Shown here piece by piece: positions 3,346-5,808 of a stretch of 34,896 bases of DNA; within the stretch, counting starts at the first letter, position 1; every line of letters starts with the position of its first letter. The translations under genes were made by a program, and so were the position numbers. Under the pieces are notes generated by a model that did no database searches, was not told where the DNA came from, and worked only from the letters and a program-made list of their open reading frames with translations. The stretch is from a virus. Its lineage: Duplodnaviria > Heunggongvirae > Uroviricota > Caudoviricetes. The stretch lies in the IMG/VR virus record IMGVR_UViG_2548877009_000017, positions 1 to 34,896 of that record; one strand, 5' to 3'.

Positions 3346-3423
3346 ATGCAAAGAGATATGCTGAATATTGCGTTCTACATATTTGGTTTTTGCACGTTCC
3401 TGGTGTTTGCGAAGCTATTCTGA
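3346..3423 (+). CDS. Candidate 25-aa hydrophobic peptide (MQRDMLNIAFYIFGFCTFLVFAKLF)
   Basis: ATG preceded by GGAGG at ideal spacing; single predicted TM helix; overlaps the 3' end of the convergent ejection-protein gene; absent from ORF track because it is short. Confidence 0.3.
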   Translation: MQRDMLNIAFYIFGFCTFLVFAKLF

Positions 3424-5808
3424 CAACGCATCAGACTTGGTACCCTGAGTCAGGGTGTTAATGGCCTTTTGCGCCTGCTGCATGGCTTTCTCAAACGCTG
3501 TTGATCCGCGTGGTGTGTTTGCCATTCGGAGCATTGCATTTCTGAATGGCTCGCTCTCATAGGCGCGAGTAAGAAGTCCGTAGCTTACCGCTGCGCCAGT
3601 TGTCGCCGGGTTCATTGCTGTCCCATACCCGATAATGAACGGGATGGTTTGCTGCCCTGTTGGTGTTGTTACTGCCGCTTTTGCAGCCTGCTGCGTGGAT
3701 TGCAGGTAGTTTTTCAATCCTTTCAGATAAGCAGCGTCCTGCCCCTTAAATGTGATGCCAGTCTGGTTTTGCAGGATGTTAAGCTGTCGAAGGAACTGAT
3801 CAGGGGAACCACCTGATTTCTCCATCGCCTTTCCAATGATGCCATTGCGCATTTGCGCCCTGCCAACACGACCAACTGAGTTATACAGCGTCTTAATTTC
3901 AGATTTGTTCTTGCTGAATAGCATATTATTGACAACTTCCGGCGTCAGGTCGCCTTTCATGAGAACATTCTTCAGCCTGGTATTCTTTAGTTTCGCCGCT
4001 TCGTCAGCGTAGACGGCATTGGCCTGCTGATATTTACGGAGAGTATCGTTGCCAAGATTCTGACCAATGGCACCATTGATATCGTCGGTCATTGCCTTGT
4101 AAACGCGCTGAATTGCGGCATCGGAACGGTTTGGTAACACTGGTCGCTCACCCTTCACGTCCATTCTGAACTGGCTGCGCAGGTCGCTTAATTGCTTCAA
4201 ATCCAGATTTACCGGACCATCAGGACCAGCATTGCGAACAAGCTCATCACGATATGACTGAAGTTTTGAAATAGTCTCGTTATCAGCAACCTTACCAAGC
4301 TTCTGCAGGTTAGATATTTCTGTATCAATCTGCTGAATTGCTCGCGCAGGCTGGATATTGACTCCAGCCATAGCATTCTGAACCTGCTCAAGACGGTTCC
4401 CTGCAGCACGACGAATTCCTGATGTTTTCGCTTTAAGGCTGTCAATAACAACCGCTGGATCATACTCACCGAATTTATCAGCAAATCTCTGCACCAACTG
4501 GCTTCTCGCTTCCTGTTGCGTTGCTCTCATTCCGCTTGTGCCAGCCAGAGGGATATTTTCTGCTGTAGTCTGCGCCATTTTTCCGACGCGGGAAGTGGGT
4601 TGTAACATGTCTGTGGTGTGCAGAGGAACGCCTTCACGCTCTGCAAATCTGATAGCTTGCTGCGCTTCTGGCGCAATAGCACCGCGAACGCCACGATAAG
4701 CAGCACCTAATCCACGTCCAGCAGCGTTAATAGCGCCGCCTGCCAGAACGCCAACACCTAAATCGGTAGCGAGTGCTTCCGCATCATCTTTCGCACTATT
4801 TGCAGCAAGTGATCCAACTGCGTTTTCTGCCAGAAGGCGAGTTGCCCCCTGAGCAATTCGACCAGCAAGTGTTGGTGCCTGTGTTGCCGCTCTCTCAACG
4901 CCAGCAGGAGTGAGGTAAGGCAATGCTTCAGCAAATACCCTTCCCTCTGTCGTTTGTGGAGTCAGCGCGCCTTGCTGAATGCCAAAGTCCTGCTCTAATC
5001 CCTGCGTTGTTACTCGTGGCGCTGGTTGATATGTACCATCGCCAATGCCGAGTTTACCGCCAGCCCAAGCCGCCGCGCTTGTTACAGCATCAGTGAGTTC
5101 AGCAGGTATGTTCGCTACGTTGATTCCTGCCTGTAGTAAGCCTCTCCCGGTTTCAGCAAGTCCATTACCAAGGTCAGACATTATTCCGCCTTGCTGCTGA
5201 ACAGGTTTCGGTGCGACAGAACTTACGGGTTGAGGTGGCTGCTGACTGGCTGCCTGCTGCTCAATCTGAGCAAATGGATTATTTGGGTCTGACTGCACGC
5301 CTGATGCCGATACTTGTTCGGATGACTGTGCTTCCAGTTGTGCAAACGGGTTGTTAGGGTCTTGCTGAGGATGTACCTTTGCAGAGGTGGCGCGCTGTTC
5401 GACTGTTGAGTCTGTCACCGGGTCACCCGCCCATTGAGCAAAGCGATCATCAACGTAACCGCGGCCTTCAGGTCCTGGCGTATATTCACCACGCTTTGCC
5501 TTCATAACGTTGCCTGGACCGTCGTGATAAGCCTGAAGAGCGTCACGCCAGTTACCAAACTGCTGGTACATCTTTGCCAGATAGCGCGCGCCAGCGTCAG
5601 CCTGATATTCGGGGTTTTGCATTTGCTCATCGGTATAACCCATATCACGCCATGTCCCAGGCATGACCTGAGTCAATCCTACAGCCCCGGCGGAGCTTAC
5701 TGCGGCAGGGTTGTAAGAAGACTCCTTGGCACCCAGTGCAGTCATCAACCCTTCTGGCACACCGTAACGTGCGCCAGCCTGCTCTAACAAATCACGGTAA
5801 TTAGCCAT
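3415..5808 (-). CDS. Ejection/internal virion protein (P22 gp16 position) with N-terminal lytic transglycosylase (SLT) domain
   Basis: N-terminus has SLT motifs (LGAKESSYNP, GAVGLTQVMPGTW, AYHDGPG); last gene of the ejection-protein trio; Ala/Gly/Gln-rich body. Confidence 0.8.
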   Translation of the reverse strand: MANYRDLLEQAGARYGVPEGLMTALGAKESSYNPAAVSSAGAVGLTQVMPGTWRDMGYTDEQMQNPEYQADAGARYLAKMYQQFGNWRDALQAYHDGPGNVMKAKRGEYTPGPEGRGYVDDRFAQWAGDPVTDSTVEQRATSAKVHPQQDPNNPFAQLEAQSSEQVSASGVQSDPNNPFAQIEQQAASQQPPQPVSSVAPKPVQQQGGIMSDLGNGLAETGRGLLQAGINVANIPAELTDAVTSAAAWAGGKLGIGDGTYQPAPRVTTQGLEQDFGIQQGALTPQTTEGRVFAEALPYLTPAGVERAATQAPTLAGRIAQGATRLLAENAVGSLAANSAKDDAEALATDLGVGVLAGGAINAAGRGLGAAYRGVRGAIAPEAQQAIRFAEREGVPLHTTDMLQPTSRVGKMAQTTAENIPLAGTSGMRATQQEARSQLVQRFADKFGEYDPAVVIDSLKAKTSGIRRAAGNRLEQVQNAMAGVNIQPARAIQQIDTEISNLQKLGKVADNETISKLQSYRDELVRNAGPDGPVNLDLKQLSDLRSQFRMDVKGERPVLPNRSDAAIQRVYKAMTDDINGAIGQNLGNDTLRKYQQANAVYADEAAKLKNTRLKNVLMKGDLTPEVVNNMLFSKNKSEIKTLYNSVGRVGRAQMRNGIIGKAMEKSGGSPDQFLRQLNILQNQTGITFKGQDAAYLKGLKNYLQSTQQAAKAAVTTPTGQQTIPFIIGYGTAMNPATTGAAVSYGLLTRAYESEPFRNAMLRMANTPRGSTAFEKAMQQAQKAINTLTQGTKSDALSE

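Follow-up and report, generated by a model that had tools for sequence, protein, structure and literature searches.

A P22-like temperate coliphage encodes a gp16-type ejection protein with a predicted N-terminal lytic transglycosylase domain and a paired linker motif

The window analyzed here, i.e., the whole stretch of 34,896 nucleotides (nt) of IMG/VR virus record IMGVR_UViG_2548877009_000017, represents the mosaic genome of a P22-like (Lederbergvirus) temperate phage, with the E. coli phages 683R2, 611R6, HK620 and IME10 as well as Sf6 as nearest relatives. Within this genome, an open reading frame (ORF) of 797 amino acids (aa) occupies the position of gene 16, being the third gene of a gp7-gp20-gp16 operon and lying upstream of the tailspike region. 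Its ATG start codon abuts the gp20 stop codon (..CAG TAA ATG GCT..). The deduced protein is made up of an N-terminal SLT domain, a linker harboring a pair of short motifs and a body of the gp16 family. The following features were assigned to this gene:

3415..5808, minus strand: gp16-position ejection (DNA transfer) protein, 797 aa plus stop codon, with N-terminal SLT domain (Pfam SLT, PHROG 770)
5434..5808, minus strand: SLT / family-1 lytic transglycosylase domain, aa 1-125 (Pfam match aa 7-110, corresponding to nt 5479-5790)
5722..5724, minus strand: codon of E29, the predicted catalytic glutamate of the E-S motif (aligns with Slt70 E478 and T7 gp16 E37)
5185..5433, minus strand: Gln/Pro/Ser/Ala-rich linker, aa 126-208, predicted to be disordered from its composition and from a predicted local distance difference test (pLDDT) value below 50 over most of aa 129-215
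5332..5361, minus strand: motif copy 1, DPNNPFAQLE, aa 150-159
5260..5289, minus strand: motif copy 2, DPNNPFAQIE, aa 174-183
5191..5196, minus strand: mosaic joint in Gln-rich CAG/CAA codons, aa 205-206, where the matches to Sf101 and Sf6 meet
3418..5184, minus strand: gp16-family body of the Sf6 gp13 type, aa 209-797 (94.5-95.7% nt identity to Sf6 gene 13)

An SLT-type motif set at the N-terminus had been proposed in a first-pass annotation made from the sequence alone, which also named a profile search as the test of this proposal. The search was clearly positive, since PF01464 matched aa 7-110 with 88.6 bits (cut-off 21.3; E=2.8e-25). In the HMMER alignment to E. coli Slt70, residues E29-S30 were placed on the catalytic pair E478-S479, G44-L45-T46-Q47 on GLMQ and A93-Y94-H95-D96-G97 on AYNAG. 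The motif residues are invariant in phage homologues of 47-49% identity, and E29, S30, G44, Q47, Y94 and G97 were unchanged in 62 aligned sequences. Furthermore, BLASTP against the N-terminus of T7 gp16 revealed 28% identity (E=1e-10) with E29 on the catalytic E37.

Structural predictions are in line with these assignments. The AlphaFold model of aa 1-215 showed pLDDT values above 90 over aa 10-100 and was disordered past aa 128. Foldseek searches with the N-terminal model retrieved Slt70 (1qte, E=5e-6), MltE and MltC as top matches, all of them lytic transglycosylases, and also chain 7k5c_B of the T7 ejectosome (E=5e-4), which represents the gp16 N-domain. Model and structure matches together showed the goose-lysozyme-like, all-helical fold of SLT domains. 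A sequence search of the PDB returned structures of SLT domains only and no solved relative of the gp16-type body. Based on sequence and model, the domain is predicted to represent a family-1 lytic transglycosylase, which would cleave MurNAc-GlcNAc non-hydrolytically to 1,6-anhydroMurNAc.

The remainder of the protein belongs to the P22 gp16 / Sf6 gp13 family, as defined by PHROG 770 and by PF26808 in the precomputed Pfam column. Alignments confirmed the suspected relationship to gp16 (35% identity over 457 aa to P22 gp16, E=1e-63; approximately 95% nt identity to Sf6 gene 13), and PHROG 770, designated 'DNA transfer protein', matched aa 108-797 with E=1e-239. Two weakly hydrophobic, Gly/Ala-rich stretches were visible within the body in the hydropathy profile (aa 342-370 and 721-746). 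The first-pass annotation had described the protein as an enlarged gp16, comparing its 797 aa with 609 aa for P22 gp16. Both lengths are correct (Sf6 gp13 has 665 aa), and the gp16 position holds as well; however, the additional length does not represent an enlargement of P22 gp16 but a swapped N-terminal module. Sf6 gp13 and P22 gp16 share the homologous body and the operon position, but their N-terminal regions are short (76 and 53 aa, respectively) and contain neither an SLT domain, as also concluded from Pfam searches, nor an N-x-F-A/D-Q motif.

The origin of the module was deduced from nucleotide comparisons. Positions 1-618 of the gene (aa 1-206) match the 5' end of Sf101 gene 13 (annotated as 'transglycosylase') at 99.4% identity, and positions 613-2394 (aa 205-797) are 94.5% identical to Sf6 gene 13. 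Both matches meet immediately upstream of the GG-IMSDLG junction common to all four aligned gp16 types, which reads IMSDLG..AG.NVANIP in the 797-aa protein. Sf101 gp13 (AII27837, 'transglycosylase', 911 aa) has the same amino acid sequence over the first 206 aa, which comprise the SLT domain, the linker and the motif pair, and its gene holds the same position after an Sf101-type gp20; the body of Sf101 gp13 is P22-gp16-like and longer, whereas the bodies of the window phage and IME10 are of the Sf6 type, joined at the Gln-rich junction. Moreover, the block 5191-8302 is 97.9% identical to Sf101, and matches to Sf6 are limited to 3345-5196 and 6604-8566, the C-terminal half of gp20 and the N-terminal module of gp16 thus forming one Sf101-like mosaic block. 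As judged from these comparisons, the gene is a two-part mosaic of an Sf101-type N-terminus and an Sf6-type body.

The same junction was also encountered in other arrangements. In P0382, P0384 and P0388 (782 aa), a gp16 body is joined at ..QQQGG[IF].SDLG to the C-terminal part of gp7 (PF25688), and in P0380 (798 aa) the Gln-rich junction connects the body to another, non-SLT region. This suggests that deletions or recombination events use the Gln-rich junction repeatedly, possibly in the setting of defective prophages.

Within the linker, the first-pass annotation had noticed a duplicated DPNNPFAQ(L/I)E peptide and had described it as a DNA repeat as well. The peptide repeat is real, with 9/10 aa identical, and in 300 shuffles of the protein no 10-mer self-match of 9/10 was obtained (the maximum of 8 occurred once). 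At the DNA level the description does not apply: only 21/30 nt are identical, most of the nine differences are silent third-position changes, and a DNA repeat search of the gene yielded nothing at the reported repeat. Of the positions given, 5262-5290 was accurate within 2 nt, whereas 5342-5368 was approximately 7-10 nt off.

Among 43 distinct N-termini of homologues, the frequency of the commonest residue was 0.99 in motif 1, 0.70 in the spacer, 0.96 in motif 2 and 0.78 after motif 2. Since both copies are fixed while the spacer drifts, and since the copies have diverged synonymously, selection appears to act on the peptides themselves. These sequence data indicate an old, selected peptide motif and not a DNA duplication. 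No further copy of the motif was found among the 23,377 aa encoded by open frames in the window.

Beyond the 797-aa class, many gp16-family members devoid of an SLT domain begin with N-x-F-[AD]-Q-[FLI] plus a subsequent acidic residue, examples being MANPFDQFDE..NPFDQFD, MANFFDQFDE..NFFDQFDE and MANIFDQFNEPTNVFDQFDE. The motif is paired in 9/11 motif-bearing representatives of the family, and in many members two copies are located 10-20 aa apart at the N-terminus with no insert. In proteins of the Lumpael type the copies bracket the SLT domain, and in P0164 and P0196 they bracket a 95-aa domain named GNIDIHNRP. In the 797-aa class the SLT domain lies ahead of both copies; in P0365, P0375 and P0376 the GNIDIHNRP domain follows both. 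As the motif is shared with SLT-less relatives, it would serve the ejection-protein scaffold and not the enzyme. It is conceivable, albeit tentative, that the pair N-x-F-[AD]-Q-[FLI]-[DE] represents an undescribed short linear motif of the gp16 family which bounds an insertion site for cargo domains. Docking to gp20, a packaging signal or a proteolytic processing site are hypothetical candidates for its role. By analogy, a motif contact could anchor the N-terminal end of gp16 on the C-terminal portion of the gp20 tube, resembling the 'molecular tape' that T7 gp16 forms on gp15. A literature search with the motif strings found no relevant paper, although an earlier paper likely to cover gp16 N-terminal types might mention the motif or the SLT variant.

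The GNIDIHNRP domain of approximately 95 aa (..EGNIDIHNRPVVKN.DGSISTVRSMS.NIDGREVLIPTVSDDGRIMSDDEAIDNF..TGKHLG.F..) was recognized as an optional module of gp16-family proteins, inserted either just before the Gln-rich junction or between the motif copies. It was found in P0365, P0375 and P0376 (aa 184-280), in P0164 and P0196 (aa 14-108), in P0244 (aa 716-809), where it precedes a C-terminal InPase domain (PF18823), and also in the gp16 of locus L054. No match to Pfam or PHROG was obtained for this domain.

Regarding the genomic surroundings, the genes on the minus strand from 17.5 kilobases (kb) down to 1 kb encode the small and large terminase, portal, scaffold and coat proteins, followed by gp4, gp10, a needle with Sf6-type knob, gp14, gp7, gp20 and the 797-aa protein. 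Downstream of the latter, a repressor gene of the Mnt/Arc type on the plus strand, the tailspike gene and an acyltransferase gene of low guanine-cytosine (GC) content were located. The neighboring genes and those of the lysis cassette are:

7150..7842, minus strand: gp7 homologue, 230 aa, opening the ejection-protein operon (Pfam P22_gp7 E=2e-133)
5809..7140, minus strand: gp20 homologue, 443 aa, the upstream partner (Pfam Inj_translocase E=5e-67)
3032..3325, plus strand: mnt-like gene, 97 aa (Arc, E=1e-14, and Mnt, E=4e-14, ribbon-helix-helix domains)
1045..2991, minus strand: tailspike gene
1..987, plus strand: acyltransferase-3 family gene (Pfam E=3e-28; PHROG O-acetyltransferase)
20081..20404: holin (lysis cassette)
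19621..20097, minus strand: endolysin, 158 aa (phrog_90 E=4e-62)
19157..19624: Rz (lysis cassette)

Some of these genes deserve a brief comment. The 158-aa endolysin lacks a Pfam match at E<=0.001, which is unusual among phage lysis enzymes. The mnt-like gene between gene 16 and the tailspike gene represents an immI remnant; its Sf101 homologue is annotated as 'putative chromosome segregation ATPase' and its best PHROG label is 'partition protein ATPase', functions that are implausible for a protein of 97 aa. The acyltransferase gene, whose ORF may be clipped by the window edge, features 30% GC vs. approximately 50% in the virion genes. In analogy to the O-antigen acetylase gene oac of Sf6, its location beside the tailspike gene suggests that it is probably a serotype-converting moron.

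The gp16 and gp20 types were compared in 76 IMG/VR contigs carrying a 99%-identical gp7 (loci within L010-L089), the members of this sample not being phylogenetically independent. The SLT/motif module was present in 11/76 contigs, in combination with gp20 C-terminal type D only and with three different gp16 bodies. The Sf6-type N-terminal module of gp16 occurred together with gp20 C-terminal types B, C and G, and the P22-type module with types A and E. The mosaic joints are located inside gp20 (after approximately aa 180) and inside gp16 (at the junction) and not at the gene boundary, so that the C-terminal half of gp20 and the N-terminal module of gp16 always travel together. By analogy with gp15/gp16 of T7, this pairing fits a co-adapted interface between both parts. 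Among more distant phages with SLT and motif, the gp20 of Kc259 and Kc166B was closest to type D, and that of IME279 and Lumpael slightly closer to type F; in this comparison the Sf6-type C also aligned over the full length.

Relatives of gp16 are ejected ahead of the DNA and build a conduit across the cell envelope (PMC10883804; PMC8954989). In T7 gp16, an N-terminal lytic transglycosylase is followed by an extended gp15-binding segment and a membrane/cytoplasmic part (PMC8954989), and the protein is classed as a virion lytic transglycosylase (PMC5380687). In the 797-aa protein, likewise the third ejection protein, such a domain forms the very N-terminus and is followed by an extended non-globular segment. 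The protein differs from T7 gp16 in its length (797 vs. 1318 aa) and in its body, as aa 208-797 gave a best E-value of 2 and no counterpart of the C-terminal body of approximately 1100 aa was found. Moreover, P22-like phages form no core stack of the T7 type (PMC8954989). By analogy, the protein would work like T7 gp16, but it is a member of the P22 gp16 family. The fold and the motifs of the catalytic domain are also shared with E. coli Slt70, MltC, MltD, MltE and MltF; these, however, are cellular periplasmic enzymes or lipoproteins with other accessory domains and export signals, and not virion proteins.

The identity, fold and catalytic residues of the domain were established here, as were the position, mosaic origin and distribution of the gene; virion packaging, ejection, enzyme activity and the time at which this activity matters are predictions. 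The product is probably the third ejection protein of a P22-like temperate coliphage, in which the short N-terminal region usual for the family was replaced by an SLT domain and a disordered linker, providing a wall cutter delivered by the virion. It would be packed in the capsid and, once the phage has adsorbed, exit via the tail along with gp7 and gp20. E29 would act as acid catalyst of the SLT domain, which would then cut glycan strands locally, allowing the gp20/gp16 conduit to cross the peptidoglycan, and the C-terminal body would engage the inner membrane. Such an arrangement has been demonstrated by experiment in T7 gp16 and would here be realized on an unrelated body. The N-P-F-A-Q-[LI]-E pair may serve the scaffold in docking to gp20 or as a packaging or processing signal. 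The suggestion of a peptidoglycan cutter injected with the DNA, already made in the first-pass annotation, is the best reading of SLT profile, fold, gp16 position and body, with activity and injection predicted.

Several points weigh against this reading. Infection by P22 and Sf6 proceeds although their gp16-type proteins lack an SLT domain, and a gp4 homologue is encoded by the window phage itself. Given this homologue and the SLT-less relatives, the domain would be accessory and its benefit may be conditional, or the domain may be dispensable. Mutants of the lytic transglycosylase of T7 gp16 are reported to show a conditional delay. Motif III reads AYHDG, AYNAG being expected; the full-length AF2 model, calculated with 27 close homologues, was uninformative (mean pLDDT 46); the literature searched holds no experiment on the 797-aa protein or a close homologue; and the link between gp16 N-terminal and gp20 C-terminal types could reflect simple DNA adjacency and clonal sampling. 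Some of these points would suit an SLT domain that is catalytically dead or mainly structural, acting for example as a peptidoglycan anchor or as 'wings' of the gp20 tunnel, with gp4 or host enzymes cutting the wall: P22 and Sf6 manage without the domain, P22 gp4 is a reported virion lysin and is listed as such (PMC5380687), the tunnel structure of T7 assigns a structural place to the gp16 N-domain too, and motif III deviates as described. However, Glu-Ser, GLxQ and AYxxG are invariant across homologues of 47-99% identity and 61 SLT relatives, which argues against a dead domain, since drift would be expected otherwise. A dead or mainly structural domain is regarded as unlikely.

An action late in infection, in lysis or particle release and not at entry, appears even less plausible and is given little credence here. 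SLT domains do occur in endolysins, and the PHROG matches include 'endolysin' families, but the phage encodes a complete holin/endolysin/Rz cassette elsewhere (19157-20404), because of which the SLT domain is not considered a lysis enzyme. The ORF is situated in the virion operon and its product cannot be assigned to the endolysin class; the domain forms one polypeptide with the body of an ejection protein encoded in the virion-assembly operon, and the N-terminus is without evident signal sequence. A late role was consequently rejected on account of the separate lysis cassette, the location in the virion operon and the covalent link to the ejection body. The notion that the long ORF is an artefact, in which an SLT gene and a gp16 gene were fused by a sequencing or assembly error or by a recent frameshift, finds some support in Kosakonia phage Kc166B, whose annotation shows two separate proteins at this place, one of 310 aa with the SLT domain and, behind it, one of 734 aa. 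Nevertheless, IME10, 52 complete E. coli genomes and a protein cluster of 1295 members all contain the identical frame of 797 aa, four other genera possess frames of 786-815 aa, and the first Kc166B protein has a tail that looks out of frame, that record likely being the odd one. A real fusion is further supported by the same architecture in E. coli and other genera and by the equivalent location of divergent SLT modules in Lumpael, IME279 and Kc259. The artefact explanation is practically negligible and was rejected, being refuted in practice by these conservation data. In Kc166B itself (locus L008, 3408-6558), the third ejection gene is split into two coding sequences, for which a frameshift or sequencing error is likely.

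More distant counterparts of the SLT module were found in Lumpael (Murrayvirus), IME279 (Sortsnevirus) and the Kosakonia phages Kc259 and Kc166B, which encode 'transglycosylase / DNA transfer proteins' of approximately 1000 aa. These share SLT domains of 47-63% identity, the same position after gp7-like and gp20-like genes, and an N-x-F-[AD]-Q-[FY] motif after the SLT domain. They differ in an extra motif copy and a leader of approximately 35 aa ahead of the SLT domain, in much longer bodies without BLAST-level match, and in lifestyle and genus. Modules of this identity range form the front part of the third ejection protein in Lumpael, IME279, Kc259 and lytic phages related to them.

Close homologues are widespread. 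In phage IME10 (JN600960, locus L005 5001-7394; 2011), the ORF is 99% identical at the aa level over all 797 aa; in the GenBank and RefSeq records of this phage the gene is unannotated, its neighbors gp20, gp7 and gp14 being annotated. Among complete E. coli genomes, 366/5426 match part of the gene and 52/5426 match at least 80% of it; in this species the RefSeq name is "lytic transglycosylase domain-containing protein". A large protein database contained many 797-aa copies, including the cluster of 1295 members. Homologues of 786-815 aa with 75-86% identity originate from Cronobacter, Klebsiella aerogenes, Kosakonia and Enterobacter; for all of them, the precomputed Pfam column lists both SLT and the family of the gp16 body. 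Clustering at 50% gave 1126 representatives of the gp16 body family. Among the best 150 of these, 116 were full-length, and the SLT domain was detected in few of the latter (P0121, P0261 and weakly P0240), with divergent SLT sequences. When the N-terminal 240 aa served as query, the large database yielded for the most part fragments and generic SLT proteins of bacteria; the full-length query was more informative.

Regarding nomenclature, SLT-less homologues of the Sf6 type with 665 aa, namely P0387 (cluster of 2252) and QOI68465 of Salmonella phage VSe13 (L003 3001-4998), carry the NCBI name 'lytic transglycosylase domain-containing protein', although Pfam finds no SLT domain in them. This name seems to have spread from SLT-bearing relatives via the shared body.

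The SLT-gp16 fusion is thus already known and domain-annotated in public genomes; the motif pair and the modular N-terminal cargo site apparently are undescribed and represent a modest addition. Current understanding remains unchanged, but the picture of modular ejection proteins is refined. SLT-tipped gp16 proteins are present in approximately 1% of complete E. coli genomes, in 11/76 sampled P22-like contigs and in other Enterobacteriaceae; a published review had sampled P22, Sf6, HK620 and CUS-3 only. SLT-tipped proteins provide a natural comparison, as the same gp7, the same N-terminal part of gp20 and the same gp16 body are combined with the enzyme in some phages and lack it in others. This could help to clarify under which circumstances a phage with a short tail requires a wall cutter of its own. 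The motif pair offers a handle for mapping the attachment of gp16 to the rest of the conduit. If the proposed cargo site is real, gp16 would represent a general delivery platform for periplasm-directed domains.

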